Shown one piece after another: positions 20,946 through 53,424 of a stretch of DNA of 64,000 nt (within the stretch, counting starts at the first letter, position 1; each line of letters starts with the position of its first letter). Made by a program: the position numbers and the translations under genes. Below the pieces are notes generated by a model. It was not told the origin of the DNA. It saw only the letters and a list, made by a program, of their open reading frames with translations, and made no database searches. Source of the stretch: Mytilus galloprovincialis (lineage: Eukaryota); the NCBI RefSeq assembly GCF_965363235.1, contig NC_134842.1, positions 20,157,521-20,221,520 of the forward strand, written 5' to 3'.

Positions 20946-21119
20946 TTAATTATCACAATTAAGAATATTTACAGTAAATTTCAAATCTTTATTTTCTTCT
21001 TTTTTCAAATCATCAACATAGTCTAGTATTGATGAGTAACATCGCTCAGCCTCCATCTGGGAAAAAGTCTCAGCTATTGCTCCTTTACGTAATAATTCCT
21101 CAATAGCCACAACAGGGTC
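20946..21119 (-). CDS. PARP4-like last identified exon encoding DPVVAIEELLRKGAIAETFSQMEAERCYSSILDYVDDLKKEENKDLKFTVNILNCDN. Its TAA is at 20946-20948. An alternative in-frame donor ACT|GTAAAT at 20973 could instead splice onward.
   Basis: Acceptor is ccttttttag. The frame is continuous with the upstream exons, and an ATTAAA sits downstream on the minus strand. Confidence 0.5.
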   Translation of the reverse strand, partial: DPVVAIEELLRKGAIAETFSQMEAERCYSSILDYVDDLKKEENKDLKFTVNILNCDN

Positions 21120-22449
21120 CTAAAAAAGGTGACAATATTCAATCAATACATCTGTAAAAATCATTTTTATATTATAAAAAATAAATTGCTTTGCTGAGCA
21201 CAGTTATATTTCTATTATAAATTAGAAAATACGTGGAGCCACAAACGTCAAAATTATTTAATCACGTAGTGAAATGAACCATTTGTGGATTCTTATAAAT
21301 TCTATAGATATTTTGAACTATTTTAAATCTTGGTCTATTTCTGAAATTAATACTTACATACTTTTGATTTTTTAACTCTGTATGCTAACATTGCCCATGT
21401 GAAATTTTAGAGTTGTTTGTATAAACATTGAACGACAAAAATATGTGACGAATAAATTTTCTGACGTCAGACACGCGAAATTGTTTCTTTTAAAATTGAA
21501 ACACGATGATGACTGCTGTACCCGTATTTTGACTTTTTTGTTTATTATGTTTGTTTAGTTTATGCATCATTGTAAACATAATGGAATTTGATGAGATTGT
21601 CGTACAAAGTGAGAGGTTTAGCGCTATAAAACCAGGTTTAATCCACCATTTTCTACATTTAAAAATGCCTGTACCAAGTCAGGAATATGATAGTTGTTGT
21701 CCATTCGTTTTTGATGTGTTTTGTCATTTGATTTTGCCATGTGATTCGGGACTTTCTGATTTGATTTTCCTCTGAGTTCAGTATTTTTGTGATTTTACTT
21801 TTTTTCGGATACTTCCGCGGAGATCCAACCCTGAACAGTTGGGGCAAAAATGGACACAATATTTACTCTTGATACAGGTCCAAATTTGGGTTGTAATTAA
21901 AAATTTGACACATAATATGTTTCTTACACAGAATAACTGTGGTCAAAGACTTAGAATTGGTTATGTGATTTTAAGTCATATTCATTTTTTAGCTTTTGTG
22001 AAACCCACAATGCTGTTGCAAACCCTCCTCCCCCTAACCCCCTTTTATAAAAAAAAGTGTTAAAAGATCACCATAAAAGTTTTAAAATAACTATATTACA
22101 CATTCTCGTAGTTCTTGTTTCAGCAAGTAAGATTTACTCATCAAATGTAAAAAATGTGAGCTTATAATTGAATAGTGGTTAAGTTTAATCCCTTTTAGTA
22201 GGATTTCCCTGTTAGCAGACAAAATATAGCCTTATTGTAGGAATAACCTTTAGTCATTTTTTGTCTTAATTAGAAAAATATCATATTTACCATGTTCACA
22301 TATACATTTATATGTATTATTTCTGGGACATGTTTTAAAAAATAATTTGCAATTAGAATAATATAAGATCCCTTCCTAATTGATACCCATTACTGAAATA
22401 TGCACTGACGGTGTAACTGATAAAAATTAAATTAAAATAGGGACCACAC

Positions 22450-22557
22450 CTTCTCTTCAAACATGTCTGCATTCTGCCAGTCCATATAAGGCAAAACATT
22501 AACAGTCTCCTTGGCAACCAAATCAGCAATTGATGGTCCATCTGTCTTTTCTTCATC
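22450..22557 (-). CDS. PARP4-like exon encoding DEEKTDGPSIADLVAKETVNVLPYMDWQNADMFEEK.
   Basis: Acceptor is tttttttttatgtag and donor is AAG|GTGTGG. It matches the recalled human PARP4 ...IAKEDVDFLPYMSWQGEP. Confidence 0.65.
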
Positions 22558-23163
22558 CTACATAAAAAAAAATACCACACATTTTTTGGTATGTTACTTT
22601 GTATAAAAAAAAATGTTGACACAGAGATATGTCTCACCTGCATGAAATTTTGATAGTAAAATTCAAATGATGAAATAAAAATAGCAATAATTTAACAGTT
22701 TAACTTTGCAAAGCATACAAAGTTAATAAACCATGACTAACAATGCAGGCAGGGCAATATAATCTCTATTGAAATGAGATGTGCCAATTCTAATACAATT
22801 GCCTACCAAAATTCATTGACCTCCCAGTAAACATCCTATTCTTATAAACTGGTACTTTTTAAGGTGGTATGTAACACTACAGGGAGACAACTTTGTAAAA
22901 GTCAGATGAACATATTAATCATGTTCTATTGTTAAGAAACTTTCAAGATTCTCAATATCAAAATAAGTATTTGTAAAACTTCTATATATCCACGGATTTC
23001 TTTCGGATATTATAAAGCATATGTTCAAGATTTTTGAAATTTTTACATTTTTGTAAACGGGTCAACATACATATTTTCAAAATTTTATGAAAATTAAACA
23101 AACCCAATTAATATTAGTCATGGTGTTTGGTACCATATTAAAGGACACACACAATTGACTTAC

Positions 23164-23265
23164 TTTTTCTCTCTCTTCCACAGCTATAAAACTTGTATAG
23201 GGGGTAACTATAGAATACTCCTTGCTTAGATCTATGATGTACGATTTTTTCTCCACTTTCTGGAC
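23164..23265 (-). CDS. PARP4-like exon encoding VQKVEKKSYIIDLSKEYSIVTPYTSFIAVEEREK.
   Basis: Donor is AAAAA|GTAAGT. The TSFIAVE motif matches the recalled human LITQFTSFVAVEKRDE (ITIH/VWA5A/PARP4 family). Confidence 0.7.
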
Positions 23266-23934
23266 CTTTGAACATAATTATAATAAATTGAATTCATCAG
23301 CTTAAAAATTAATAAATGTGTTTTGTTTGAAAATACAGTTTATTCCTTTTACTGTGTCAAGCAATCTCATTAAAATGAGCTGTAACAGTTAATTTTTTTG
23401 CTACGATACTCTCCACCCAAACCACGGTAAGAGGAAGTGTATGTAGCGTATCACAATATAGGATTTTAATCAGATGTTTGTCAAGCTATAAAGTGTAATC
23501 CTTTTATATCTTAAAATCTACATGTGCTAACTTATAATTTGGACCTGTACACATGATAACCTAACATTGCATTCATTATTTTAAATATTCAAATAACATT
23601 AATCATATATCTTTTAAAATACAGCTAGTTCTTATTTCTTCCATTGGTGTCAAGTTTTTTTAATCTATCCATATACTCAAACTTGTTACAAAATTCCTAG
23701 GATATATTCAATTGTCTCTTTCAGGACCAATGATCATGACTCTTGTCCTCCCAGATGTTATGCAAGTAAAGATTACAAAGACAGGGGTCATAATCACTTG
23801 ACCTTCAACGGTGTTCACCTTCTTACAATAGCTATAGCTCTACCGGTATATACTGTGAATTCTTAACTCACTGCAAAGTTTTTATTGATGCAAATAATGT
23901 GCCTGAATGAGTATCACAATAATAACCAGGTACT

Positions 23935-25050
23935 CCGCAGGGCGCAGCTTTATAAGACCCCAGAGGTTGAACCCTGAACAGTTGGGGCAAGTATGGACAC
24001 AACATTCAAACTTGATACAGCTCTGAATTAGGATTGTGATAAAATTCTTGACATAATATGAGTTTCTGACACAAAACAAATGTCAAGATCTTACAAATCT
24101 ATTATGCAATAATTTCAAAAATTTGGAATTTGAGAAATTTGGGAAAAAATTGAAAACTACTACCACCCGCTTTTTTTTTGTAATAAGTCCAAAACCTGAC
24201 ATTTCTTTATACATAAATTACAAGTAGTGTGAGGGAGGTAAATCCGAACATACCCAACATTGTATGTTAACTGTTTTTGAATTACCTCCATTACACTGCT
24301 TTTAAATGTTTTAATTGTCCATTGACCAGAAAACCCTAGCTTTCCCCCTTTTTTGCCCCTAATTCCAAAACGTTTTGAGCCATAACCACCCAATGTCATT
24401 ACTAACCATCCCTTCATGGTATGGAAACTTGTGGTATAATTTCAGAGAGATTCATACATTAAAACACAAGTTATTGTTTGAAAACTACAAAATTGCTTAA
24501 TTTAGGTCCCCTTTTTGGCCCTAATTCCTAAACTGTTCGGACCATAACCCCTAAAATCTATCCCAACCTTCCTTTAGTGGCATTTAACCTTCTGCTAAAA
24601 ATTCATAGAGATCTATTTACTAATCTAAAGCTATTGTCCGGAAAACCTATTTCCCCCCTTTTTTGCCCCTAATTCCCCTTTTTTAGCCCCTAATTCCAAA
24701 ACATTTTGAGCCATAACCACCCAAAGTCATTACTAACCACCCCTTAACGTTATGGCAACTTGTGGTATAATTTCAGAGAGATTCATACACTTAAACACAA
24801 GTTATTGTTTGAAAACTACAAAAGTGCTTATTGGGCCCCTTTTTAGCCCCTAATTCCTAAACTATTTAGACCAAAACCCCCAAAATCAATCCCAACCTTC
24901 ATTTAGTGGTATTGAACCTTCTGGTAAAAATTTATAGAGATCCATTCATTTAATCCTAAGTTATTGTCCGGAAACTAAATGTGTCTTCGGACGACATACC
25001 ATAATACGACGCAAAATTTTTTTTGCGGTCGTTTAAAAATTTGCAAACTG
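23935..25050 (+). mobile_element. Composite SINE-like element, copy 2 (tRNA-like head gcagaggttgaaccctgaacagttggggcaag, 170-bp tandem units at 24280-24960, hairpin tail acgacgcaaaattttttttgcggtcgtt).
   Basis: Collinear with copies at 6975-8280 and 37955-39900. Confidence 0.6.
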
Positions 25051-25398
25051 ATATTCGATACATGTATCTGTATGCAGATTTTCCTGAAATCACAATACTT
25101 AATCTTACAAGATGTTCACAAATGTATCTTTCTTTGTGTCCATCAGATTATTGAAAACAAATACTCTAAAGACTTATTTTTAAAATCTTTGGTATGATTG
25201 TACTGTTTTCATAATATGGTCAGGGGCGGATCCAGCCATTTTAAAAACGGGGGATTCCCAACCCAGAACAAAAGGGGGGTGGGGGGAGGGGGGTGTTTCC
25301 AACTATATGTCCCCATTCAAATAAATTGATCGTCCAAAAAACAGGGGGTTCCAACCCCCAGAACCCTCCCCCTTGATCTCCCACTGATTTGGTCATAC

Positions 25399-25479
25399 CT
25401 GATCCTGTGTATTATTACTGGAGAACACCCCATCTTCATAATCTCTAATCACGGCTCTAGCTGTCAGCTGGTGTAACAT
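25399..25479 (-). CDS. PARP4-like exon encoding MLHQLTARAVIRDYEDGVFSSNNTQDQ.
   Basis: Acceptor is ctctttatcttgtttag and donor is CAG|GTATGA. It matches the recalled human IHKLAARALIRDYEDGILHE. Confidence 0.7.
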
Positions 25480-25857
25480 CTAAACAAGATAAAGAGTGGT
25501 TATAAACTTATCTGATAAAATATATACAACAAAAGATGAATGTTAGAAAAGTATTAACTTTTAAAATATGATGCTAATTACATATAAAAAGTTAGTCAAG
25601 GGCAAGGTTTACTGAGCCCTTCAAGATTTAGGTGCTGTAACATAAAAATGTATATATTTCTGATACTGACCTACTGATGAAGCCTTAGCAGTTTTAGTGA
25701 GTTTTCAGTGAAGACAAATTTGTGACCTTCAAATCAAAATTGATGGCCACAAATCTTCAAACACTGTATCAGAAGCAATAAAATAGGATAGATCTTCCAC
25801 ATAAATCACAGTTAGAAACATGATAGTTTTCATTAACTTCAATGTAAATAGACTTAC

Positions 25858-25938
25858 TTTGCCCTTGGTCATATTAAGTTCTGTGGTTGACACCATGGTA
25901 CAGAATTCATTACCATCAACTGAAGCACTTAACTTGGC
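25858..25938 (-). CDS. PARP4-like exon encoding AKLSASVDGNEFCTMVSTTELNMTKGK.
   Basis: Acceptor is ttttttag and donor is CAAA|GTAAGT. It matches the recalled human EKEFRTMVSTTELQKTTGT. Confidence 0.6.
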
Positions 25939-27080
25939 CTAAAAAATGGGAACAAAAATTATTCAAAAATCATTTTTTATCATTGCAGGTGACAATAGTC
26001 CATTTGCCAATTACCGATTTGATTCTGTTATTACATGAACACACTTTTAAAACAAATTACTTCCCTTTGTCAATTGTAGACTGGTTCCATACTGGACAAA
26101 ATTGGTTTTTGCTAATGCAAAGCATGATGAATTGAAAGTGATGTATCGGCGGTTTAACTATTCTTTCATGAAAACTAATTTCTGATGTCAAAGAATAAAC
26201 TAGAGAAATACTGGAAGAACCAACCAATGGTGTACAAAGACTATAAATCAAAAATCACCGGAAGTGGAGAAGATTTAGATATAAAGACTGATGAAGAGGA
26301 ACTTTAGTTCCTGTATCAGTAAAAGAACCTAAGTAAACCTAAGTAAGTAAAAGTATTTAGCTTAAGGATGTACTTAGGTGAGGTTAGGTGAAAATTAATA
26401 AATCAAGAATTTAAAATTGATATTATATAAGCTGGTAGAGCATCCGTTAAGGATAAAAATAAGCTAAAAATATTGATAGGTCATGGACCTCCTTTTCGAG
26501 ATATTTGGGATTTAAAATATGGCGGAAAAAGGCTGACTCTGATTTTTACCTTATATTTGAAAACCTTAAAGATGACTCACATTACACACAGGTAAATTTG
26601 CTCTTCCTGCTAGCTCTTCATTGTAAATAAAAACTAATGTCCCTCATAAGGGAGACAACGTATAAAGGGATCTCTAATTACAGGGTCAATTACGGGAATT
26701 GGCAAATAGCCTATTATTGGGTATAAAATTGTGAAAAATAAATCATGCAATATTTGAAAACAAGGTTGTATTTAGAACAACACAAAGGAATGGGAAATAA
26801 TTCTCAAAATAATAATTTTGAAATGAGAGAAAAAAAAATATCATGTTTTATTACCAAATCCTATTCTCCTTTACTTTTTTATAACAATTATTTGGTATAG
26901 AATGTGAATTAAATCGTGCAATATTTAAAAAGGTTGTACTTATAAGAACAACAAAAAGCAATGGGAAATAATTCTCAAATTGATAAATTAAAAATTGAAA
27001 ATGAACTTCACAATAAATATATGTTTTAAATAAACACATAGATTCATGAGCAACAAACACGATTTTATTTTAATTCTTAC

Positions 27081-27248
27081 CTGTGTACAATTTGGGACAA
27101 ACCCATAAACTACCTGGCGAGTACCATTAAACAGAGATGGGATTATACATGGAGCCTGGATTATATTACTGTGTTTAGCATAGTATATCCACTGTACACT
27201 GACCCCAGAAACACCTGGTTGACAAGCTCGCTCAGTCTGGCCTTCAAT
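27081..27248 (-). CDS. PARP4-like exon encoding IEGQTERACQPGVSGVSVQWIYYAKHSNIIQAPCIIPSLFNGTRQVVYGFVPNCTQ.
   Basis: Acceptor is ttttattccacag and donor is CAG|GTAAGA. It matches the recalled human LCSPSCHSVSVKWQQ...QVPSLFLNDRLLVYGFIPHCTQ. Confidence 0.7.
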
Positions 27249-27439
27249 CTGTGGAATAAAACCATGTGGAGCATTAAGAAAGATCTGCCCAAAATGTTTA
27301 CAGTCTAAATAGTTGCTTGATATTAAAATACACAGTCTTTTACATAAAACTAATGTGTTAAACAGATTGATTTAAATATTTCTCATTTCTAGTGAAAACT
27401 TTGTTCTCAGCAAATGATTGGAAATTCAATTACAATGTC

Positions 27440-28030
27440 AAAGGAGTAGTTCGGTCCAGTAAGGGCCGATTTCGGCCTCAATTTTCAAGTTCATCAAACG
27501 AAATATTTTTGACACTTTTTAAACACTTAAGTGTCTATTTCAATTGATTCAATTAGTTTATGTGAACTATTTTTACTGATTAAGTCATTAAAAACGCTCC
27601 AATTTAAGTTTAAATATGAAAAATCTATCAAATATGCCAAAAATCATCACTTTTCAGATGGTTTTTGTCAAAAATGAAAGTGGCCGCATCCGTGTTCATC
27701 GTAAAGCTTTATATATATTATGTATTATCATTAAATACAGCTAAAATTTCAATATTATGGATGAACACGAATGAGGCCACTTTCATTAAAGACGGAAACC
27801 GTCTGAAATTTAACTAAAATGCTAAAATTGTGAAGATTTCAGTAATTAAGCATGACTTAATGATGCTAGTACCTGATATATGTGCATTGTATTGTCAAAA
27901 ACAGCCCATATTTATGTAGCAGAAGCATTCTACTTTTGCATAAATATCTAAACGATTACATTTTCACAATTTTCTAAAACTGCTATATTTTGGGGCCAAA
28001 AAGGGGTCTTACTGAACCTACTCCTTTTCT
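27440..28030. mobile_element. Second copy of the head plus tail of the 10240-11400 element family, without the 150-bp array.
   Basis: The segments gggccgatttcggcctcaa...tcacttttcagatggtttttgtcaaaaatgaaag...ctgctatattttggggccaaaaaggggtcttactg are shared. Confidence 0.6.
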
Positions 28031-28629
28031 TGAAATCTAAATTTCCTACTGTGACTTCACCAAAAAGACAATGATAATGATGCCTGGTGACTTCACAAAT
28101 AAAGAACACAACTTTCTGCATATTTGAAATGAAAGGATAAACTCTGATTAAATATTATCTAAAAATCATTAGAGAAACAGATTTCACCACTACATCTCTT
28201 GTATTTTGATATTTCTCCACTATCAACAGTTAAAATTTTAAATATTATAAAGCTTTGCAATCAAACATGGTCAACATTTTCAATGTTTATTACCACAAGA
28301 GATTGTAACATAATAACAAAAGAACATGTACCACTCAAACAGATGAGTAATTTATCATTGAAAAACTCAAGTAAATTTTGCCAAACTTTTTTCATTTGTA
28401 AATTTTGCTTTCACACTTCTTATCATTTCCATGACATGTTAATGAACCTGCAGACATTTTTGTTTGCTGGTATTGTAAAGACACTTTGAGCAACCTTGGC
28501 TATATCAAGCCTGAGTACCCAGAAAGAATGACGATCATTGTAAATTAAGATCGGAGATTAACACATCTTGCCATAAGCTAGCTTTTGATTTAACATAAAA
28601 TACTGATACATGTAATGGTCAATGCTAAC

Positions 28630-28729
28630 CTTTGACTGCCAATTAGACTTAGTTTTGTTGTTGTAATATTGGTATGTTCCTCCACCAGATGTCGCTAGTG
28701 TCTTCATTAAGTGATGATTTACTGCAGGA
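28630..28729 (-). CDS. PARP4-like exon encoding (G)PAVNHHLMKTLATSGGGTYQYYNNKTKSNWQSK.
   Basis: Acceptor is ttatcttttttttctcag and donor is AAG|GTTAGC. It matches the recalled human GSTANRHVLRILSQCGAGVFEYFNAKSKHSWRKQ. Confidence 0.7.
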
Positions 28730-29601: not shown

Positions 29602-29789
29602 CCAACTCCTGCAGTGAAAAGTCGATTCTGATCACTCATTTTTCTGACAAGTGATAAAGTTTCCTCAACACTAGTCATGTGACCATCTGATATAAGAATG
29701 ATACTCCTGCTGCCCTCTGGTGGACTGAGTAAGAACAAAGACTGTAACAAGGTTATGACAACTGTTCCTCCTTGGTCACATTCAGTTGA
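29602..29789 (-). CDS. PARP4-like vWA exon encoding STECDQGGTVVITLLQSLFLLSPPEGSRSIILISDGHMTSVEETLSLVRKMSDQNRLFTAGV(G).
   Basis: Acceptor is ttttttatttacag and donor is TGG|GTAGGT. It matches the recalled human GNTDFWKTLRYLSLLYPARGSRNILLVSDGHLQDESLTLQLVKRSRPHTRLFACGIG. Confidence 0.75.
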
Positions 29790-30302: not shown

Positions 30303-30443
30303 CTGTATGAAGTTTGTAGCTTTTTGTACTGAATCTTTTGTTTTGAGTTGCGGTGATGGGAATAGCTCTTTAAATGTTGTACCAAACGTGATCACATTAA
30401 AACTGGACTTGTCAGGTAACTTTGTCAAAGACAAAAGGAAAAC
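30303..30443 (-). CDS. PARP4-like vWA exon encoding VFLLSLTKLPDKSSFNVITFGTTFKELFPSPQLKTKDSVQKATNFIQ.
   Basis: Acceptor is ttctattgtgtttcag and donor is CAG|GTAAAA. It matches the recalled human IALHALSLVGEKQKVNIIQFGTGYKELFSYPKHITSNTMAAEFIM. Confidence 0.7.
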
Positions 30444-30895: not shown

Positions 30896-31015
30896 CTTTT
30901 TAGCATCCCTCCCTGCTTGACCTTTCATAGAATTAGACATATCTAATAAATAGATAACTTCCTGTTGGGGGTCAAAATCTGCATCAAACTCCGGATAAAA
31001 TGTTAGCATGCAGGC
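30896..31015 (-). CDS. PARP4-like vWA exon, with a MIDAS-like DMSNSM motif, encoding ACMLTFYPEFDADFDPQQEVIYLLDMSNSMKGQAGRDAKK.
   Basis: Acceptor is aattattttttag and donor is AAG|GTAATG. It matches the recalled human EACMLVFQPDLDVDLPDLASESEVIICLDCSSSMEGVTFLQAKQ. Confidence 0.75.
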
Positions 31016-31696: not shown

Positions 31697-31831
31697 CTGA
31701 CTGTCCTTGTTAGGGTGATTTTCTACCCACATTCGTGGTACATGTATTTCTGCCATGGTGACCAATAGCTGAAAACCATCATCTAGCTGGCTATTTTTAG
31801 GTAACTCCACTACTGCCTTGGTGGCCGTTGT
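31697..31831 (-). CDS. PARP4-like exon encoding TTATKAVVELPKNSQLDDGFQLLVTMAEIHVPRMWVENHPNKDSQ.
   Basis: Acceptor is taatcttttttcag and donor is CAG|GTAACC. It matches the recalled human SGFSLHIGLSAAYLPRMWVEKHPEKESE. Confidence 0.65.
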
Positions 31832-33144: not shown

Positions 33145-33267
33145 CTTGACTTTAATTCTGTGTGTTGGTGAATTAACATTTCTAATATCAAATGGCATTT
33201 CCATGGCAACTTGTAAAGACAGATCACATCTTCCAGTGTCCTTGACCTTCAAAGATGTTAGCTCAGA
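33145..33267 (-). CDS. PARP4-like exon encoding SELTSLKVKDTGRCDLSLQVAMEMPFDIRNVNSPTHRIKVK.
   Basis: Acceptor is atatactttctttgcag and donor is AAG|GTAGTT. There is a weaker match to the recalled human QSFSLTMSIEMPYVIEFIFSDTHELKQ. Confidence 0.55.
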
Positions 33268-33900: not shown

Positions 33901-35460
33901 CGCACATTAATATTCAGTTCAAGAGAAGTCCAAGTCTGATCTCAGAAGATGTAACCAAAGAAAATAAACAAAATGACAATAATACATAAATAACAACAGA
34001 CTACTAGCAGTTAACTGACATGCCAGCTCCAGACTTCAATTAAACTGATTGAAAGATTATGATTTCATCATATGAATATCAGGCACAATCCTTCCCGTTA
34101 GGGGTTAAGTATCATACCATCATAACATATATGAGAAGAACATAACCCGTGTTATGCCAACAACTGTTTTTTGAATAAAGGTGTTTTGTTCTGATGCGAA
34201 GACCCTATAAGTGAATCAATATTAATGCCAAAATATGCAATCTTTAATGACCTGACAACAGTATCGTAACTATATCCCTTCTTAATAAGTCTATTTAAAG
34301 GTTTTGTTAGCTTCTGAGGTGAATACTGACATTTTTGTGCTTTATAAAGAATATTTCCATAAAAAATTGGATGTGAAATACCTGAACGTATAAGAAGTCT
34401 GCATGATGAGCTATATTAATGAATGATGGCCTTATACCGATGATAAAATTTAGTAAATGTTTTGACTAGTTTGTGATATCGAAAACTCTGGTTTAATAAT
34501 TTTTCAGTAATACATAAATTTCTCTCGTTAAAATCTAAAACATTGTTACATACACGAGCGAATCGTACAAGTTGAGATTTTAAAAAGAGTATTTGTATTG
34601 CTGCAACCCAATTATTATTTTCCTTTCATTTCCACATAAACAAACTTATAAATTAATCCTTTTCATGTTTTTAAAATTCATTTATCATTGTTTTTACTCA
34701 TTATTACAAGCTGACTAGTTAATCAAATCAAAATATTGTATTTATTATAAATCCACTAAAGACAATTATTACAGCAATCAGTGAGAAATATTATTATGAA
34801 TTTATGCTCCAAAACATGACATCAATTTAAAATATTTCCATGTGTTTTTTTGAATTTCAATAATGTATACCATATAGATATCTGAATAAGTTTTTCTAGT
34901 TTTAATACCCTAAATACTTTTTTTTATATAAAAGTAGGAAGAATATATGGGCAACCAAACTCATAGACCCAATACTACCTTTGAAAACAGGGGAGATAAT
35001 TCTTAACTTGGTACATGTTGTAATTAAAAAAAAGATCATGATGTTAATTATAATTACTGAATGCAATTTATTTGAATAACAAACAAACTTTAAAATGTTC
35101 TGCTTTCAAACATGTACTGCAGAAGCAAATATTCAAAGCAGTATTTTTTTAAAAATAAAACAAAGGCATTTAGATTGAAGCAGCTACTAACATTATGTTA
35201 TGTTTGGACTGCACATATCTGTGATTTATGAGAGCATTGTTTACCTGTGTTTTCTGAGCCAGAGCTGTATCTGTATATTTTATGAGAGCATTGTTTACCT
35301 GTGTTTTCTGAGCCAGAGCTGTATCTGTATATTTTTTGAGAGCATTGTTTAACTGTGTTTTCTGAGCCAGAGCTGTATCTGTATATTTTATGAGAGCATT
35401 ATTTACCTGTGTTTTCTGAGCCAGAGCTGTATCTGTATATTTCATGAGAGCATTATTTAC

Positions 35461-35625
35461 CTGTGTTTTCTGAGCCAGAGCTGTATCTTGTATCCATGGT
35501 GCTACTGAAGCAGGTAAACTAAATGCTATGGCTTCATTCTCTGTTTGTAATTCTGATATGTATGTTATCTTAATCAAAACTCTCGCTTGTGGAGGTAAAT
35601 TCCCTACACTAACTGTAAACACATC
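35461..35625 (-). CDS. PARP4-like VIT-domain exon encoding DVFTVSVGNLPPQARVLIKITYISELQTENEAIAFSLPASVAPWIQDTALAQKTQ. It is followed by 4 more in-frame 54-bp copies (35215-35460), each ending in CAG|GTAAA.
   Basis: Acceptor is ttgttttttatcttacag and the first donor is ACACAG|GTAAAT. It matches the recalled human DVFTVSVGNLPPKAKVLIKITYITELSILGTVGVFFMPATVAPWQQDKALNEN almost residue for residue. Confidence 0.75.
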
Positions 35626-36826: not shown

Positions 36827-36918
36827 TGGTTCCTCTTCATCCATTAGGTATGCCCCATGTCCTTTACTAATGGCCTCTTTGTATTCCTTGTGAGCTGTTT
36901 CTTTTTCTTTTACCTCCC
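36827..36918 (-). CDS. PARP4-like exon encoding (G)EVKEKETAHKEYKEAISKGHGAYLMDEEEP.
   Basis: Donor is CCA|GTAAGT. It matches the recalled human GEIKEKEEAQQEYLEAVTQGHGAYLMSQDAP. Confidence 0.7.
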
Positions 36919-37118: not shown

Positions 37119-37245
37119 CTATGACATGTTTTCCATTGATGAATGCTTCAAACCCACATACAGCAGCTGTATCATCTAGTGGGAAGACATACTTAGCTTC
37201 AATAGGAACATTGTTGTCATTCTTGTATTCTTGTAATATAACAAC
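37119..37245 (-). CDS. PARP4-like exon encoding VVILQEYKNDNNVPIEAKYVFPLDDTAAVCGFEAFINGKHVI(G).
   Basis: Acceptor is gattattttttcag and donor is ATAG|GTATTT. It matches the recalled human VIVFQTYTNKSHVPIEAKYIFPLDDKAAVCGFEAFINGKHIVG. Confidence 0.8.
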
Positions 37246-37519: not shown

Positions 37520-37650
37520 CTTTGCTACTAAGTCCAAAAGATGAGCTCTAATATGAACAGATTTGAGTGGAACTGATTGTTTTCCTTTTCCAATCAAGCC
37601 TGCAGTAACTTTGTTTAAAGGGTCAGGTACATCCTTCACATCTTGTAAAT
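37520..37650 (-). CDS. PARP4-like exon encoding (N)LQDVKDVPDPLNKVTAGLIGKGKQSVPLKSVHIRAHLLDLVAK. The in-frame ATG at 37658-37660 lies inside the acceptor tttatgtttacag and is not a start codon.
   Basis: Donor is AAAG|GTAAGG. It matches the recalled human SGNLVPLEDVHIKGRIIDTVAQ. Confidence 0.65.
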
Positions 37651-42648: not shown

Positions 42649-42802
42649 TTATTTCTTCAGAAATGTCTTGATCTGTAATTTCTTCTGACCTCAAGGTCAA
42701 TGCCATGTCAGTTAATGGGGTCACAGTATCCTCAGGAAGACATAGTTGAACTAAGTATTTCATTTTCTGTTGTCGATGGTTATAGATAACAAACTCATCA
42801 TC
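42649..42802 (-). CDS. PARP4-like exon (end of the PARP catalytic domain) encoding DDEFVIYNHRQQKMKYLVQLCLPEDTVTPLTDMALTLRSEEITDQDISEEI.
   Basis: Acceptor is ctctccttacag and donor is ATAA|GTAGGT. It matches the recalled human DDEFVVYKTNQVKMKYIIKFSMPGDQ. Confidence 0.7.
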
Positions 42803-43421: not shown

Positions 43422-43608
43422 TATAAAGTCTGTTGGTTCACCTTCAGATGAAAATTTGACACCATGTACACTATCGTACCCAGATGGAGGCTCCATCAGG
43501 GAGTTATCTATTCTTGTGCAGTCCTTGACCTTACCCAAGCTAACATCACTAAGTAACAACAACCTTGATCCATGTGTAGTACTGGGACCTGAATACATCA
43601 ATGACTTC
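43422..43608 (-). CDS. PARP4-like PARP catalytic exon encoding (R)KSLMYSGPSTTHGSRLLLLSDVSLGKVKDCTRIDNSLMEPPSGYDSVHGVKFSSEGEPTDFI.
   Basis: Acceptor is ctttgttttcctttcag and donor is ATA|GTGAGT. It matches the recalled human SIKYSHPGETDGTRLLLICDVALGKCMDLHEKDFSLTEAPPGYDSVHGVSQTASVTTDFE. Confidence 0.8.
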
Positions 43609-44293: not shown

Positions 44294-44392
44294 CTAGCTG
44301 TGTCGGAGAAGTATATACCACTACCCAGCAACCCTCCATCTGTTCTTGTTATGCCATGTTCATCTTCTACAAAGTTTGGCATCAGCAATCCT
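44294..44392 (-). CDS. PARP4-like PARP catalytic exon encoding (R)GLLMPNFVEDEHGITRTDGGLLGSGIYFSDTA(R).
   Basis: Acceptor is tactattttcag and donor is TAG|GTAGGA. It matches the recalled human RGLLLPKVVEDRGVQRTDVGNLGSGIYFSDSLS. Confidence 0.8.
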
Positions 44393-45420: not shown

Positions 45421-45549
45421 CTTGAAAGAATTCCAAGGAAGTTGTGGAACCCAGATGAGTGCATGAGTAACTGTATATTACCAACTTCTGATTGGAAACA
45501 TAAATCCTCCAATGTCCTCTCTAACTTGTATACATTCAGAAGTTCTACT
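45421..45549 (-). CDS. PARP4-like PARP catalytic exon (H-G-S region) encoding (K)VELLNVYKLERTLEDLCFQSEVGNIQLLMHSSGFHNFLGILS(R).
   Basis: Acceptor is atatattacag and donor is CAAG|GTAAAC. It matches the recalled human VDVLQIFRVGRVNETTEFLSKLGNVRPLLHGSPVQNIVGILCR. Confidence 0.8.
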
Positions 45550-45959
45550 CTGTAATATATACATCAAAATACATCATTTTGTTGTCGTAATACTTTTTAT
45601 TTATAAGTCAGATTTGAGTGCACTACAGCGCCCTCCACCAATTAAATCTTGCAGCTATATGGAATAGCGATAAAAGTGGCATTTGAACAACACTTATCAA
45701 TCATAATTGAAAGAAGCAATTTTAATCCTTAATTTTTTTCCAGATTTTTTCTATTTGTCATTAGGTTGCTTTCTTATCAATACCTTACAACTCCATTTAT
45801 CTTTAACAATTTAAAACCAGGAAAAATCATGCCCAATTGGTGACTTTTCCATAAAACTCTCGTGGCTTTAAATGTGATTGATAAATGCTTGAAATTTCAA
45901 AACATCAATTTCCTTTTTTTATTTACATTTATTGTTTACACTTTCAAGGTTATATATAA

Positions 45960-46300: not shown

Positions 46301-46656
46301 ATATGCTGATTTTTCAAGCATCTTAATGCTGCCTCCTTTTGCTATTTGTTAATCAGTAGACAAATGGAATTTTTAAATGCAATAAAACTGATTGTTTACT
46401 AGCATTCAGAATTTATCTCCAATACCTAATGAAAAATACCTCAAAAATATTTCACAAAGACTTTTAAGAGTATAGAAATTGAAAACACCTTTTTGGAAAA
46501 GCCTCTACTTATGTTTATGGAATTGGTTTTAATTTTTAACGGTATATCAGCACACTTGTTTGCATTAATCTACTAACCCTGTACGTAATTGGTACAAGTG
46601 AAATATAAAAAATTTCCTGGACATTTAATTTCTAATCTTTTATAAACACATCTTAC

Positions 46657-46817
46657 TTTTCTGAAGTTGATTTCACTAATTTGGTCACATGATCAAATTC
46701 ATCAGTGGATGGATCAAGCTGTGTCACATGGCATTTCAAAGCTTTATATTTGGCAACAGTTGTAGCCTCATCAGACCAATCTGTGGCTTCTCCAACACTA
46801 ATTATATCTCTTATAAG
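46657..46817 (-). CDS. PARP4-like exon (PARP regulatory region) encoding LIRDIISVGEATDWSDEATTVAKYKALKCHVTQLDPSTDEFDHVTKLVKSTSE(K).
   Basis: Acceptor is ttttttttatttcag and donor is AAAA|GTAAGA. It matches the recalled human LIRDMVNVCETNLSKPNPPSLAKYRALRCKIEHVEQNTEEFLRVRKEVLQNHHSK. Confidence 0.8.
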
Positions 46818-48022
46818 CTGAAATAAAAAAAAAGTCTAATCAGCTGAAATAAAAAAAAACAAGAATGTGTCCCCAGTACACGAATGCCCCACTCGCACTA
46901 TCATTTTCTATGTTCAGTGGACCGTAAAATTGGGGTAAACCCTCTAATTTGGCATTAAAATTAAAAAGATCATATCATAGGGAACATGTATACTAAGTTT
47001 GAAGTCGATTGGACTTCAACTTCATCAAAAACTAGCTTGACCAAAAACTTTAACCTGAAGCGGGACAGACGAACGAACGGACGAACGGACAGACAGACAA
47101 ACGAACAGACGGACGAACGGACGCACAGACCAGAAAACATAATGCCCCTCTACTATCGTAGGTGGGGCATAAAAACATGGCCAATCAGTGGTTTTGAAAG
47201 AACATTGTTTTTAAAAGGTTAACAGTATAAGTCTTCATTGCTCATTGTTGAAGGCCGTAAGGTGATCTATAGTTGTTAATTTCTTTGTCATTTGGTCTCA
47301 TGTGAAGAGTTGTCTCATTGGCAATCACACCACATCTTCTTTTTCATATTTAACCAATCATTAGCTTTATATTCACTTATAATTATAAGTTCCATGCTTA
47401 TCAGAGCCATGAAAGTTATGTACCACTGTGGCCTTATCAAATTAAAATTTCAAATGAGCCAAATAAAAACAGAAAAGACTGAGCTTTCAGTTTGTTTGTG
47501 ATTTACCCCTCCAGAGCACCTGATATCACCATGTGTAGTTTTCTGTTGTGTTTTGTGTACTGTTGTTTGTCTGTTGGTCTTTTTCTTGTTTAGCAATTGT
47601 GTTGTCAGTTTAATATCAACTTATGAATTTGAATATCCCTTTGGTATCTTTCCCTATTCTTTTAAAACAGAACCTGAGTTCATTGATAAAAAGTTAAGAT
47701 TGAAAAGAACAAATATATGTTACACAAACTTTTGGAACACAGTGAAAATCTTAAAATTTTCTACTACAACATCATATAAATCATGTAAATCTTGTGGAGA
47801 GTCGTCTCATTGGCAATCATGTAATTGCATGCACTAGTAATTTTTAAGGCCTCTTTTAGTTTGCTGTCGGTGTGAACCAAGGCTCTGTGTTGAAACTACT
47901 TTGACCTAAAATGGTTTACTTTTACAAATTGTGACATGGATGCAGAGTTTTCTCATTGGCACTCATACATCATCTCCTTATATCTATATAAAAAATGCAA
48001 ATTAAAATTTTAAACAAAATAC

Positions 48023-48202
48023 CTGACAAAGATCCTGTTTAGCCGATATATCTGAGACACTGAGTTTGTCCTTCCTGTTCGACCTGTTATGAGGTATAGC
48101 TTTGTAAAACTCTTTGGTCAGTTCTGAACATTTCTCACTGTCAACCCTTCTTGTTTTATACAACTCCTTTAACTGATACAGCACTGCTTCTGCTTCCTCA
48201 AC
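48023..48202 (-). CDS. PARP4-like exon encoding VEEAEAVLYQLKELYKTRRVDSEKCSELTKEFYKAIPHNRSNRKDKLSVSDISAKQDLCQ.
   Basis: Acceptor is ctgtattatag and donor is CAG|GTATTT. It matches the recalled human ILLLVKAALKNGETAEQLQKMMTEFYRLIPHKGTMPKEVNLGLLAKKADLCQ. Confidence 0.75.
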
Positions 48203-49474
48203 CTATAATACAGTCACAGTGACCTCAATTAATGATAGCAACAATATAATTAATGAACTTGGTGGCCTTCAGCTATTATCTACTCTATGGTCGGGTTGTT
48301 GTCTCTTTGGCATATTCCCCATTTCCATTCTCAATTTTTATTATTTTATCATTACTCAAATTACCTTTTCATCTTTTAAAATAGCAGATAAAACTACTGT
48401 GGATTCATCATCAATCATGGGAGACCAATAGACAACTTTCGAGTTCGGTGCATTTCCGTCAAAAACTCTGGTTTTAGTGAATGTCATTTGTGCGTTTAGG
48501 GGCGTCGTCACTTCCATTCCAATGTTGAGCGAGTGGTTGGAAAACTATAATTCTATATTGTACGAATTATTCGGCAAATTGAATTCTCAAAATTGACAAT
48601 CAGCATTGCTGTCATTAGGGAATTGTCATAATGTACCTACAGAACAACCATTATTTCTAGTTTATCCTGCACAATGACGATCACTAAGACGCTTGATGAA
48701 CGTAAATAGTGCAGGGATACAGGCGACCCCTTCTATCTGGTAAATGACGTCATAAAGGCGCGTATAATTGACGAGTTTTTGCCGGTGACGGATGAACTCG
48801 AAAGTGGTCTATTTTCATGGATTAAATCAGTAAAGAGGAACCTTAACATATTTAAATGTTTAAGGAATTGCAAATTTTCCCTAGGCAAACTTGTGCAAAT
48901 CCAAAAAATAAGTTATCCTTGAAATGTTAATATCCCTCAATCAGGAAAAATTGTTCCCCACAAAAAATGAATGAGATCCATAGTACAATTATTGGATGTT
49001 ATGATCATGTTTTTTGGCATTAAATGAAAAGGGAAAACAGAATGATCACTATGATAACTAAGTTTCTGTATTTATTGGATTCTGGATATTCATCCAGATG
49101 TTGGATATTTTGGATAAAATTGGTAAATTCATAAATTAATGCAATGTTTTTATCATTGTGAAAAATGTCAAAGGGCTATAATTGCAATAATGTCAACTCG
49201 CATTTTGGAAAAAAAAAATTAAGAATTAAACAGGACTTTTTACAATATTGCAAAAGTTGCGATCACATTTTAGTCTAGAAGGACAATTTCACAATAATAA
49301 ATGCCTGCAATAATTTCTGAATTTAAAGTATGTTTCAATTGTTTGGATTCTACAAATTCCATTTATTTTACAAATTGTATTTAATACAGATATTTTCATA
49401 TAAATATTGACTGTAAAGTTCATTTGACTAGTTTTATATTCTAAATTTCTAATTCTAGGCTAAACAAAGTTTAC

Positions 49475-49612
49475 CTTAGATAGCTTAGTAAGCTGGGGAG
49501 GAGAAGATAACTCATTCTCTGCATTTTTAAGTGCATCAGACCAGATCAGTTCTACCAGCTGTCCAACAGGTTCAGATATCTCTATTGATGTGTTACATAG
49601 TTCTGATAATAT
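49475..49612 (-). CDS. PARP4-like exon encoding ILSELCNTSIEISEPVGQLVELIWSDALKNAENELSSPPQLTKLSK.
   Basis: Acceptor is cttttcag and donor is AAG|GTAAAC. It matches the recalled human LLLEEVMNSSTLSQEVSDLVEMIWAEALGHLEHMLLKPVNRISLNDVSK. Confidence 0.7.
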
Positions 49613-50008
49613 CTGAAAAGATAAAAACTAGAGGTAAAATTTGATAATTTCTTGAACAATAATATTGAAAAATGACTTTATCAGAGCTACTTCCCATTAT
49701 ATTGCAAAGTTAGAAAAATGAATTAGACATAAAGAAATATTTTATTAAAATTTTGTTATTTGTAAAAACTGTCTATTTAATATAATAGATTACTTATTAT
49801 TTTCTATGTATAAAAGAAGTCATATGCATGAACTGCCATCCTAGGTATCAAATAGTGCATATATAAATCAACACACAAGGTTATCATTAAATGTAATTGA
49901 TTATGTCCATTTGCTACTCATATTTTATTAAAAAAAGGAGTTTATTTCAATAGTAAACAAAATACCATTCTGGCTCTTGGTGACCCTAATTTATTACTGG
50001 AAAATGCA

Positions 50009-50128
50009 GGCTGTACCCATGGTAACATGCTGTATGGTGCTGTAGTGTACCGTTGATATAGCAGTTCATACCCACTCAATCCTTCTGCTGCTGTGTCTAA
50101 ATACCAAACGCTAGGATCTGACGTACTA
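50009..50128 (-). CDS. PARP4-like candidate exon encoding NIVSTSDPSVWYLDTAAEGLSGYELLYQRYTTAPYSMLPW. The donor TGG|GTACAG was chosen because it is the only frame-compatible one.
   Basis: Acceptor is ctcttttcag. It is a 40-codon open frame that is phase-consistent with both neighbours. Homology to the recalled human sequence is weak. Confidence 0.45.
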
Positions 50129-50899
50129 ACTATGTTCTGAAAAGAGAAAAACTAAAACTAATACCAAAGAGCTTCAGTATTCAATGGTGACATTCTGCTG
50201 TTGTCTGTTATATGGTCAGGTTGTTGTCTCTTTGACACATTCCCCATTTCCATTCTCAATTTTAATGTTTCTTTAGCTGATACCTAAAAATTATGTTTCA
50301 ATGTGGAAAAATGTAAAATAATAATTTTGACCTGAAAAGATTTTTTTGGACAATATGCGTGTTCCGGATATAGTTTTTAGTAAAATATGTCATGTGAGTT
50401 TCATCATCATGTGTGCAAATTGTAGGCATCCTCACTTCAAACACATGTTGAGCAAACAGCTGAAAAAGTTTGATTTTACACTGCATAAAATATTTGGGCA
50501 ATTATAATCTAATATTAAAGGTGGCCATCCTCCCTCAGTCATACGGGAATCAAGATTATGTACTTATGGAACATAAATTATTTCTTTTCTACCCTATAGA
50601 AGTGCTGGAAACTTTTAATAGAGCAGAGATACAGGCGAGCCTTCTATCTGGTAAATGACGTCATAAAAGCATGCAAAATTGACATTCTTTTTTTTGTAAA
50701 GACATTATTCCAGAAATGACATATGGATTAATTTTATTCAAAACAATCTATTTTTAGATGTTTTTTTGTTTTTTTAACAATGGATTAATGTTATTCAAAA
50801 CAATCTATTTCTCAATGTATCTTTTTTTTTGGACAGCTTCATTATGGATTAATGATATTCAAAATAGTCAACTATCAAACCTCAAAATTGACCTCTCAC

Positions 50900-50995
50900 C
50901 TTCTGCTCATCAATAGATCCTGCCTGACTGTGAAGTCTAAACACATCTTCGTCAGTTAATACATGGATCTCCATTATCTGTACTTTGTTTTTGTT
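50900..50995 (-). CDS. PARP4-like candidate exon encoding NKNKVQIMEIHVLTDEDVFRLHSQAGSIDEQK.
   Basis: Acceptor is gtctttacag and donor is AAG|GTGAGA. Both sites are strong and the phase is consistent with the neighbours. Confidence 0.5.
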
Positions 50996-51432
50996 CTGTA
51001 AAGACAATGCATTAATTATAATCGACTTCATTAATTTATATAACCCCATTCTTCTACTTTTTTTTTAAATTAATAGTTTATAAATCAGTAAATTTGCTTT
51101 ATGTAAATTTAGTTTTACTTTTTTCCTCAACTTTCTCAGTGATGTGTTGGTTGTACATTATGTCATTCAAACTTGTCATTTGTTAAAAGTAATATTAAAA
51201 TCACTGTGATTGATAATCAAATTAAACTTCATGTAAAATCCTCAATATTTTTCAACTTTGAGTATGCTATAATTCTAACTTAAAAAAACTTTAAACCACC
51301 CTTAGCCTACTGTACATTAGATAATAGCAATAAAAACTTGATTTCATAATTAAATATATTGAACATTTATTTATTTGACTAAATAATTGCCATTTTAGAC
51401 ATATAAAGTAAGCAATGTATACTAGTACATAC

Positions 51433-51578
51433 CTTTAGTAAAGTCCATTTAGCAAGGACATAAGGAATATCTGGATCATAAGGAGCCCCTGGATCTGTAT
51501 ATGTCCAACATTTCGTGTTATTCAGGTTAACTTGTATCTTTTTCTTTTTTCTTTTGATCAAACCTTGTGGATTTTTAC
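51433..51578 (-). CDS. PARP4-like candidate exon encoding (G)KNPQGLIKRKKKKIQVNLNNTKCWTYTDPGAPYDPDIPYVLAKWTLLK. The acceptor gactttcag is weak.
   Basis: Donor is AAAG|GTATGT. Its phase-1 start matches the phase-1 end of the upstream exon, giving ...KGKIVGKNPQ... Confidence 0.4.
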
Positions 51579-52032
51579 CTGAAAGTCATTTTTAATTTTA
51601 GTAATCAGATATAAATATTTGCAAAAAAATCTTTTGACTTATAAAATGACAGCATTCATCATTAGAACAGGAATAAGGTAATGTGCAAGTGCAACTGTTG
51701 GGAAAAAGGTTTTGAGTTCATTAGTATATTGATTTTTTTCTACTAACAGTTAAATCATGAGGACTTCATCCTCCAATCAATGTATATGTATTAAAAAGAT
51801 TATTATTACGTCATTACTTAAACATGCTAAACCGTTAGTATTGAGACAAAAATACACAGATTTAACCTCAGACAGCTTACAGTTCTCAAGCTGTATCTTA
51901 TTTGAAATTCATTTTAACAAAACTGAATTGCCTTCATGGCCTTATAACATTTCTCATGCTTGATTTATTTTCATAATAACAGAACAACACAACCATCCTA
52001 CATCAATATAATTTCCAATGCCTTCAACATAC

Positions 52033-52231
52033 CAACTATCTTTCCTTTCTTGAAGTTATCATTCTCTGGTAGTCCACTGACTATATATTTAATTTTTGTA
52101 AGAATTTTATTCTGTGACAGGCAGTTATCAACATACAGGCTCTGAACCAAGGGAATGTGATATTTCTGACATTGTCGAATCTTGTAACTTGACTTCTCAA
52201 CTATGTCTTCAAACACAACAACAAATGATAC
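52033..52231 (-). CDS. PARP4-like BRCT-domain exon encoding VSFVVVFEDIVEKSSYKIRQCQKYHIPLVQSLYVDNCLSQNKILTKIKYIVSGLPENDNFKKGKIV(G).
   Basis: Acceptor is aatattttag and donor is GTTG|GTATGT. It matches the recalled human CTHIILDNADVLSQYQLNSIQKNHVHIANPDFIWKSIREK. Confidence 0.55.
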
Positions 52232-52500
52232 CTAAAATATAAACAACAGATCTTAAAATAGAGGGTTGCCACACTAATACTACATGATTGTTTAAAAACC
52301 TTTATTTCTCCTTAAGTTCTGATTATAGTATGATAGTTGATGGGTGTTACATGATCTTTGCAAATTACAAGGCAATAATTTTGATAGCATTATATGAATG
52401 CAAATTTTTGATGGTCGTATAAAAACAACTTTTTTTAAATATTATGTTTAACAAAGTGATTTGAAATACAGAAAACACAATTATTCAAGTTTATTCTAAC

Positions 52501-52638
52501 CTTTTTAGTTACAATATATGACAGAGTTCCTCCATTTGAAGTAATTTTCTTCTTCCAAGACATTTTCTCCTTGAATGACATTGAAGATGGCAGTTGTAAC
52601 ACTACTGTATTGTTATGGAACAAACCTAACTCTCCCAT
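52501..52638 (-). CDS. PARP4-like first coding exon. The ATG at 52636-52638 sits in a Kozak-like context (caagccATGGga). It encodes MGELGLFHNNTVVLQLPSSMSFKEKMSWKKKITSNGGTLSYIVTKK. An acceptor atatttgcag at about 52663 suggests a spliced 5'UTR.
   Basis: Donor is AAAAAG|GTTAGA. It matches the recalled human N-terminus MVMGIFANCIFCLKVKYLPQQQKKKLQTDIKENGGKFSFSL. Confidence 0.55.
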
Positions 52639-53424
52639 GGCTTGATTTTCAGATTTACACACCTGCAAATATGATGAAAACAGTGGAATGCAATGATGAC
52701 CATAGAATCAATCCTTATCAAAATGTTGTCCTTTCTAGATTACATTTTGACCAGGAGCTCAACTGAATGCTATTGTTTAGACAAACAAACAAAACAAACA
52801 GCAATTATTTACTTATTTCAATTTTGAAAGGGAAAAAAATTATCGGTACTGGTTTTTTTCAACAATCAAGCAGATTTGTACCATTGGAACAGTAAAAGTG
52901 AAAATTAAAAAAATCAAATCTAATTGTCTTGAATGGTAAAAAAAACCATTCCATTAAAATGTAAATCAATTTCAAAAAGAGGTAATCCATTTATTATTAG
53001 AAAACAAAACAAATTGCAATGTTACAACTCTGAATGTCTGAAACAGTAAAAGTGAAAACAACAAAAAATCAAACTTAACATGGTTTTCATGGCTTTAGTA
53101 GCCATATCATTCCATTCAAATTTCAATATATATATTTCAAAAAGCATTTATCTTTTGATCATCTGGAATCCAAGAGTGTGACAGACTGACAAGATAAATT
53201 CAGTCTATCAAGGTCATAAAATCAAAATGTCTAACAATTAACAATTAAAACATGATATATATCTGTATATATAAAAAAGTAAAAAGATGTGGTATGATTA
53301 TTAATCAGACAGCTCTCCACAAGGGACCAAATGACACAGAACTTTACATGATGGTAGGTCACTGTATGGCCTTCAGCAATGAGCAAAACCCATACCGCAT
53401 AGTCAGCTATAAAAGTTATTTTCT

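Follow-up and report, generated by a model that had tools for sequence, protein, structure and literature searches.

In a 64,000-nt stretch of the genome of the mussel Mytilus galloprovincialis (NCBI RefSeq assembly GCF_965363235.1, contig NC_134842.1, positions 20,157,521 to 20,221,520 of the forward strand; hereafter the window, numbered from its first letter) we find a gene of the PARP4 family on the minus strand, and with a probability of roughly 0.75 we take it to consist of a conserved PARP4 core, an extension and a long linker leading to a MINT-like end. The gene would be transcribed from the minus strand with its start at 52638, and exon 28 (E28) would be spliced at 20973 to exons E29–E31, which would add an in-line copy of ubiquitin followed by a very long, repeat-rich and fast-changing linker. 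Within the window this linker would comprise a Q-rich repeat, copies of the histone H3 tail, an acidic stretch, heptads resembling the C-terminal domain (CTD) of RNA polymerase II, and an RS domain; outside the window a clathrin terminal domain would follow, with the MINT-like domain at the end, giving a mussel protein of ~3,400–3,500 amino acids (aa). Such a protein would correspond to the PARP4 of vertebrates, and its equivalent of the disordered 'exon 30' linker would have grown enormously through the capture of fragments of conserved cellular proteins. An original prediction, made from the letters of the window, had described a 28-exon vault-PARP gene ending at 20946. We confirm that these 28 exons are the core of a real PARP4 orthologue, which is ordinary as a finding, and we find that the predicted extent and product size of the gene were wrong.

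The core was rebuilt independently by concatenating open minus-strand segments and comparing them with PARP4 proteins across Metazoa, the best matches being the models P0001 (M. edulis) and P0002 (M. coruscus). Exon borders were set by tblastn of Mytilus homologues onto the window, with the GT/AG pairs enumerated for each junction. This reconstruction gave 28 minus-strand exons from an ATG at 52638, with 27 out of 27 introns of the GT-AG type and all phases compatible, and thus bears out the predicted chain with its consensus splice sites and conflict-free phases. When checked against 30 homologues, 18 of the 27 junctions were free of gaps within ±6 aa in at least 23 of the 30; the others lie in variable regions. 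Read through to the stop at 20946, E1–E28 encode 1275 aa (1277 aa with the alternative acceptor of E26), so that for this reading the predicted size of about 1260 aa agrees with ours. Ten of the eleven peptides quoted in the prediction can be read without interruption from the minus strand within 44325–23176, and the eleventh, its 'H-G-S region' (LLMHSSGFHNFLGILSR|GLLMP), is created by the splicing of E9 to E10.

The family assignment and the domain order BRCT, PARP, VIT, vWA were likewise right. In a Pfam scan of the spliced product, PARP (PF00644) scored 89 bits over residues 395–569 of at least 1275, and both VIT (129 bits, 628–738) and VWA_3 (84 bits, 875–1027) lie C-terminal to the catalytic domain; the prediction had been staked on matches to the PARP catalytic, VIT and vWA models, and all three were obtained. 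BRCT (21.3 bits) and BRCT_2 (27.3 bits) fall exactly at their cut-offs, a marginal but consistent match, and the region aligns over its whole length with the BRCT of other PARP4s. PARP_reg, which the prediction had also listed among the models to be searched, did not appear among the matches at E ≤ 0.01; the helical domain does align with the human PARP4 helical and catalytic crystal construct 8sx1 (E 3e-72). Human PARP4 (11jf/9bw6) matches in a single collinear stretch, residues 242–1212 against 239–1214 (E 7e-256), and the H-Y-E triad as well as the metal-ion-dependent adhesion site (MIDAS: DxSxS, T, D) are conserved relative to human PARP4 and to the 30 homologues. The exon that the prediction had called 'near-identical' to human PARP4 is E14, in which 26 of 29 residues are identical. 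The defining domains of PARP clade 5 are BRCT, a central PARP domain, VIT and vWA (Citarelli 2010, PMC2964712); all four are found here, and judged by its sequence the product is a homologue of PARP4/vPARP (PARP clade 5A). The conserved residues suggest an active NAD+-dependent ADP-ribosyltransferase, and the VIT-vWA module may bind partner proteins.

The window is 96–98% identical to the corresponding M. edulis contig, introns included. Over the 28 exons, 33 synonymous and 22 non-synonymous differences from M. edulis correspond to a pN/pS of 0.18, which indicates that the core is under purifying selection. For E29–E31 and the tail exon A2 the same measure is uninformative (0–2 differences from M. 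edulis), and for A3 it is 0.71, from about 9 changes. As far as comparison between genomes can establish it, the core gene, the splicing of the core and selection on it are secure. In a neighbour-joining tree the window gene falls into a bivalve clade (A) together with Solemya, Pinctada-A and Ruditapes (bootstrap 100), and the other Mytilus PARP4-like gene falls into a second mollusc clade (B); mussels thus have two PARP4 paralogues, and the window gene represents one of the two found in bivalves.

The gene does not appear to stop at 20946, as had been predicted. Both P0001 and the M. coruscus model P0241 splice from 20973 to 19547 and then continue at 18083–17898, and the Ruditapes PARP4-like protein continues past the equivalent of E28 with similar sequence. 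E29 (19460–19547; all exons given here and below lie on the minus strand) is 100% identical to P0001 and 97% to P0241. E30 (17898–18083) encodes the N-terminal two-thirds of a ubiquitin-like domain and has a GC donor (CAG|GCAAGT); E31 (15525–16810), present in P0241 and in the M. edulis model P0391, encodes the end of this domain (LRLRGG-P), a Q-rich 11-aa repeat and a G/S-rich region. Intron 30 (17898/17897 to 16811/16810) is therefore of the GC-AG type and interrupts the ubiquitin-like domain. It is precisely here that the gene is broken in the M. edulis annotation, probably because the predictor disallowed GC donors. Only with E30 and E31 joined is the ubiquitin profile (PF00240) matched end to end (1–72 of 72, 79.8 bits). 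Five or six other mollusc PARP4-like models have a ubiquitin-family domain after the TSFIAVE region as well; of these models, Mercenaria P0016, Littorina P0018, Nucella P0011, Batillaria P0010 and Plakobranchus P0020 can be named, and in the first four of these genera the domain carries an intron at the same position (DY[NS]|I). We therefore regard the link of E28 to E29–E31 as strongly supported by the comparison of gene models.

The domain is identical to ubiquitin at 55 of 74 positions (74%). K48, L8, H68 and the C-terminal RLRGG are retained, with K63 changed to N and I44 to V. Its Gly-Gly is internal and followed by proline (RLRGGPD), rather than free as in a conjugatable precursor, which marks it as an in-line ubiquitin-like module and not as a ubiquitin precursor. 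Junctions of ubiquitin with proline resist deubiquitinases, and the domain looks like a stable, uncleavable in-line module.

To the left of E31 the window contains a minus-strand series of mostly phase-0 exons. Four of them resemble parts of histone H3: A2 (14478–14600, phase 0-0; KQSARKSTGGKCPR) is identical to H3 residues 3–30 at 17 of 28 positions and occurs in P0391; A3 (12299–12445), present in P0241 and P0391, contains RKSAP (H3 27–31); A4 (9307–9606) consists of three 33-aa units with TAGKSTGGSAP, 9 of 11 positions being identical to H3 7–17, and has an acceptor scoring 11.1 and phase-0 donors at 9505, 9406 and 9307; and X3 (6098–6207) is identical to H3 35–59 at 22 of 25 positions (E 8e-7 against H3 chains of the PDB). 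Taken together, these look-alikes represent H3 residues 3–59 on separate exons, reported in H3 order, and Lys4, Lys9, Ser10, Lys14 and the K27-S28 motif are each kept in at least one copy. Profile and PDB comparisons gave no H3 match beyond residue 59 in the window or in the RefSeq model P0242 (XP_076109027.1). A histone H3 gene was considered and rejected, as the tail is not followed by a histone fold (alpha1–alpha3) and only H3-tail-like peptides are present. The remaining tail exons are the acidic X2 (6386–6589; 100% identical to P0242 residues 11–78 and also in P0391), X4 (4278–4368; DDFAGEFPSLMPPEV...), which weakly matches the tail of the Ruditapes PARP4-like protein, and X5 (29–2096), with an SP-rich part and CTD-like heptads (PTSPSYSPTSPS), an RGG box and an RS domain of ~300 aa. 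Two of the heptads of X5 are near-perfect RNA polymerase II CTD heptads, the Pfam Rpb1 repeat scoring 18.6 bits and so falling below its cut-off of 20.3. The donor of X5 (AAG|GTAACT) is at positions 29/28, which places the left edge of the window in an intron of the gene.

Two of the tail exons are themselves built from coding tandem repeats. In E31 a 33-nt unit (QQQQMFQPQVQ) is repeated 14.5 times at 16029–16506, with a copy number that differs from M. edulis, and in A4 a 99-nt unit is repeated 3.1 times at 9299–9601, each unit with its own phase-0 donor; the A4 repeat is partly read in another frame in M. edulis. When 1.84 billion representative sequences were scanned with HMMER using the tail pieces, the matches were P0242, which is 100% identical to the tail pieces of the window, M. 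coruscus P0241 and, after these two, nothing but H3 histones. When the ubiquitin-like domain was part of the tail query, polyubiquitins dominated the homologue search, which was uninformative. The window lacks the ribosomal P-stalk-like motif that other mollusc tails carry. A home-made gene finder (dynamic programming over splice and coding scores, run on 16810–1) over-predicted small exons, and only its site scores were kept.

Past the left edge of the window P0242 and P0391 continue into a complete N-terminal propeller of the clathrin heavy chain (E 7e-85, CLTC residues 11–334); M. edulis names P0391 'CLTC'. The C-terminus of both models resembles the MINT domain of PARP4: blastp gave E 3.8e-4, a custom hidden Markov model gave 18.9 bits, compared with at most 2.5 for 200 shuffled sequences, and hhalign gave a probability of 89.7% (E 1.9e-6). 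In cnidarian and placozoan PARP4, too, MINT is the very last domain, and an end of this type would be sensible only at the C-terminus of a PARP4. Its link to the core gene we infer from automated gene models that overlap. MINT binds MVP and docks human PARP4 inside the vault cage, and vault membership is defined by MINT together with physical association (PMC12280208); MVP is abundant in the gill of M. edulis (PMC5302490). The 'vault' label of the original prediction could not be read from the 28 exons, the sole vault-specific feature being the MINT-like domain of P0242, outside the window, and an association of the mussel protein with vaults would be an extrapolation from this domain.

Joined together, the exons in the window form a phase-compatible chain of 39 exons and 2805 codons without a stop that reaches the left window edge. 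The prediction had recommended the gene as an annotation target; the locus is in fact already annotated in M. edulis (CAG2240013.1 and CAG2240014.1) and in M. coruscus, with broken or duplicated models. P0001 covers E1–E30; P0241 covers E25–E31, A3 and A4; and P0391 (2016 aa) starts from an intronic ATG just before E31 and runs through E31, A2, A3, A4, X2–X5, the clathrin domain and the MINT-like end. The M. coruscus annotation is cut at tandem copies of exon 25 (P0002/P0241), and the M. coruscus locus (L002) ends at E29, before the rest of the tail. The annotations of M. edulis, M. coruscus and RefSeq break the locus at different points, and each spans the breaks of the others.

Several observations weigh against the proposed gene as a whole. 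Every junction rests on homology and automated gene models, and for the core no identical M. galloprovincialis protein was returned from the protein collection. At the end of the core, the E28 donor at 20973 is the weakest of the gene (2.9 bits), a stop in frame follows 27 nt into the intron at 20946, overlapped by an ATTAAA at 20945–20950, and the Pinctada model P0006 ends at the point equivalent to the end of E28. Further left, RefSeq starts a separate gene (LOC143077023, P0242) from an ATG exon of 10 codons at 7625, a call that may be supported by RNA; the M. edulis locus (L001, 67821–69657) has exons for ~107 aa between A4 and X2, where the window (9123–6590) holds unrelated, repeat-rich sequence, and because this part of the M. 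edulis model lacks a counterpart in the window, the A4–X2 junction is hypothetical. The missing ~107 aa include two more copies resembling H3(18–35) (LLATKAARKSDPSTGDV and HLATKAARKSAPETGGV) and are partly conserved in M. coruscus. Finally, the similarity of the P0242/P0391 C-terminus to MINT is weak, with 24% identity, and this domain is located outside the window; the residues of MVP to which PARP4 binds are reportedly conserved only in vertebrates (PMC12280208).

The features around 20946 would suit the gene as originally predicted, with a PARP4-like protein of 1275–1277 aa as the only product and other genes downstream; however, two Mytilus models splice at 20973, Ruditapes continues in the same way, the ubiquitin domain follows in other mollusc PARP4-likes, and an ATTAAA is to be expected by chance in a genome this rich in A/T, so that we consider such a sole product very improbable. 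The same ATTAAA could serve a short, intronically polyadenylated isoform, and the coexistence of a form ending at 20946 with the long one is conceivable, if on balance rather unlikely. Still less probable, and close to negligible, is a decaying duplicate of the other mussel PARP4 paralogue in which the exon chain is a relic: the lack of an identical protein and the structural instability of the locus between assemblies would fit it, but the 39 exons lack stops and frameshifts, the pN/pS is low, all catalytic and MIDAS residues are kept, and the clade is old, with orthologues in Solemya, Pinctada and Ruditapes. A more serious competitor, which we nevertheless hold to be doubtful, is a gene fission, in which a gene with the PARP4, ubiquitin, Q-rich and H3-like parts ends near 9300 and a second gene on the same strand, starting at 7625, encodes a protein with acidic, H3-like, RS, clathrin terminal-domain and MINT-like parts. 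XP_076109027.1 indeed has its own ATG exon (7625–7596), the exons that connect A4 and X2 in M. edulis are not in the window, and P0241 ends soon after A4; but a first exon of 10 aa is as short as such exons come and none of the donors listed above threshold belongs to it, P0391 continues across this position, phase 0 is shared by A4 and X2, the H3-like pieces stay in H3 order across the boundary (3–30, 27–31 and 7–17 upstream, 35–59 downstream), and the MINT-like domain is otherwise known only as a PARP4 C-terminus. On the evidence of the gene models we therefore lean, with some reserve, towards a single gene.

The core exons can be assigned as follows. E1 (52501–52638; donor AAG|GTTAGA), which contains the start codon and is 94–96% identical to P0001/P0002 by tblastn, and E2 (52033–52231) encode the two halves of the BRCT domain (match at residues 6–90), E2 aligning with the BRCT of 30 PARP4 homologues. 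Exons 3–5 are poorly conserved: E3 (51433–51578) encodes a variable linker with KKKK and a conserved AKW motif that has homologous sequence in other PARP4s; E4 (50900–50995), placed by tblastn and splice sites, has counterparts in other PARP4s; and E5 (49966–50136) is a real exon, aligning with the Ruditapes, Solemya and Pinctada PARP4-likes (VWY..SGYE.LY). The alignment with human PARP4 begins at E6 (49475–49612), the start of the helical (PRD-like) domain, which continues in E7 (48023–48202) and ends in E8 (46657–46817), where the catalytic domain starts; E7 and E8 are supported by tblastn, splice sites and the human alignment. The catalytic domain extends over E9 (45421–45549), with the His of H-Y-E (LLMHSS; splice sites and human alignment), E10 (44294–44392), with the Tyr (GSGIYFSD), E11 (43422–43608) and E12 (42649–42802), with the Glu (DDEFVIY), the last three by located motifs and the human alignment.

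VIT starts in E13 (37520–37650; by Pfam, with an alternative in-frame acceptor at 37641) and continues through E14 (37119–37245; VPIEAKYVFPLDDTAAVCGFEAFINGKHV), E15 (36827–36918; splice sites and human alignment) and E16 (35461–35625), which holds the VIT core and, with the donor at 35461, aligns to human PARP4 without gaps. The last 18 codons of E16 and its donor are duplicated by a 54-nt tandem repeat on the same strand (35225–35493; 5 copies, 96% matches by Tandem Repeats Finder), providing four in-frame candidate donors (35461, 35407, 35299 and 35245; ACACAG|GTAAAT/C), while the copy at 35353 is mutated to TT; M. edulis P0001 uses the second donor, 35407, which adds 18 aa. E17 (33145–33267; P0002 tblastn) and E18 (31697–31831; tblastn) both align with human PARP4. 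The vWA domain starts in E19 (30896–31015; P0002 tblastn) with the located MIDAS motif DxSxS (LLDMSNSM), continues in E20 (30303–30443; tblastn and Pfam) and E21 (29602–29789), where the MIDAS Thr and Asp (GGT, ISDGH) were located, and ends in E22 (28630–28729; tblastn and Pfam). It is followed by the ITIH-like region in E23 (27081–27248; tblastn and human alignment), by E24 (25858–25938; tblastn and splice sites) and by E25 (25399–25479; MLHQLTARAVIRDYEDG; tblastn), which is present in at least 8 tandem copies in the M. coruscus models P0002/P0241. E26 (23164–23265) contains the located TSFIAVE motif and has tandem acceptors 6 nt apart at 23265 and 23259 (AAAG|GTCCAG|A), both weak, the latter scoring 2.2; P0241 uses the upstream one, 23265, which gives length parity with human PARP4. 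E27 (22450–22557) was placed by tblastn and P0241, and E28 (20973–21119), the last exon of the original prediction, has the donor ACT|GTAAAT, read-through of which leads to the TAA at 20948–20946. In M. edulis a second copy of exons 1–8 (P0001 residues 1–373 repeated) and an inverted copy of exon 1 are present, and the window is single-copy; this duplication and that of exon 25 in M. coruscus could be either assembly artefacts or real local duplications.

Around the exons we observed three non-coding satellites: a 169-nt repeat (4.6 copies) at 5224–6006, immediately downstream of X3, a 161/313-nt repeat at 10510–11116 in the A3–A4 intron, and a 37/78-nt repeat at 59675–59945, upstream of the gene. 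Introns at ~21862, ~24005 and ~38033 contain minus-strand copies of a repeated element with an open-reading-frame peptide 'LCPYLPQLFRV...', which the gene does not include and which is probably a dispersed transposable element. Rfam at gathering thresholds gave no match in the window, no open reading frame of note was seen in 52700–64000, and in M. edulis the 10 kb that precede the gene contain no called gene.

Captured pieces of conserved proteins are also found in other invertebrate PARP4-likes (P0008, P0014, P0015, P0037, P0038, P0010, P0011, P0016 and P0018). An N-terminal actin fragment (residues ~3–65) follows the vWA domain in PARP4-likes of Ptychodera, Saccostrea, Pinctada, the jellyfish Rhopilema and in the Mytilus paralogue B; a 14-3-3 fragment occurs in the linker of Ptychodera, and four calmodulin-like EF-hands in that of Pinctada. 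In a reading that we hold to be improbable, though worth stating, the linker between the vWA region and MINT in invertebrate PARP4s could be a fast-changing array of captured copies of conserved hub proteins that act as baits or integrated decoys. In the mussel gene the array would comprise the ubiquitin, the several H3-tail copies, the CTD-like heptads, the RS domain and the whole clathrin terminal domain, and in other species also the ribosomal P-stalk-like tail; that the actin, 14-3-3 and calmodulin-like pieces form part of such an array is speculative. Pathogen effectors, or host 'reader' proteins, that bind the hubs would in this case be brought to a vault-tethered ADP-ribosyltransferase, and exon 30 of mammalian PARP4, disordered and under positive selection, would represent the same interface in a reduced, vertebrate form. 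In the literature searched, of which coverage was partial and which is no proof of novelty, we found no description of such PARP4 tails.

In practical terms, the window supplies a clean exon map, without duplications, of a locus whose models are broken in each public Mytilus annotation examined. If the long gene is real, a PARP4 in which the vault-docking domain is preceded by an in-line ubiquitin, H3-tail copies, an RS domain and a clathrin terminal domain would be a new architecture, with comparable captures (actin, 14-3-3, EF-hands) in other phyla, at a region that is positively selected in mammals. Captures at this region would offer concrete, testable binding modules for the hypothesis that PARP4 and the vault take part in host-pathogen conflict.

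Integrated-decoy or 'tripwire' immune sensors, such as plant nucleotide-binding leucine-rich repeat (NLR) proteins with integrated domains (NLR-IDs) and NLRP1/CARD8, carry copies of pathogen-targeted host proteins fused to an effector scaffold. The mussel protein would resemble them in logic only, by its copies of conserved proteins on an effector scaffold; its scaffold is a PARP and not an NLR, and any sensing, cleavage or signalling by it would be conjecture. The ITIH proteins share VIT, vWA and the region after it (ITIH4, E 1.9e-16; ITIH1, E 4.6e-14), but they are secreted and have neither BRCT nor PARP, whereas here the VIT-vWA part is embedded in an intracellular-type PARP; an identity as ITIH was rejected, since BRCT and PARP precede VIT-vWA and the similarity is limited to residues 874–1184. 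Another comparison is with the five named ubiquitin-bearing mollusc PARP4-likes, four of which also have LRLRGG followed by proline, and H3-tail-like peptides occur in those of Littorina (QTARMSTGGKAP, with a K9M-like ARMS) and Batillaria (QTARRSTGGRAP); unlike the window gene, which belongs to clade A, the ubiquitin-bearing proteins belong to clade B and have shorter tails with a ribosomal P-stalk-like 'EEMGFxLFD'.

Among the closest known systems is human and vertebrate PARP4 (vPARP; PDB 9bw6, 9bw7, 8sx1), with the same order of BRCT, helical, PARP, VIT, vWA and ITIH-like regions; if the mussel gene is a single one, it would also share the long linker and the C-terminal MINT-type domain. Identity to the human protein is about 44% over roughly 970 residues, including the H-Y-E and MIDAS residues, and the largest exon, which in human PARP4 lies in the linker, would do so in the mussel as well. 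The mussel protein differs in having H-S-S in place of H-G-S, H-[AS]-S being usual in invertebrate PARP4s. In mammals recurrent positive selection acts solely on the disordered ~360-aa linker, the product of the largest exon, and this linker varies in length among vertebrates (PMC4038475). Compared with the human linker of about 360 aa, that of the mussel would reach about 2,000 aa, and it would carry the ubiquitin, the H3-tail copies, the RS domain and the clathrin terminal domain that are absent from vertebrate PARP4.

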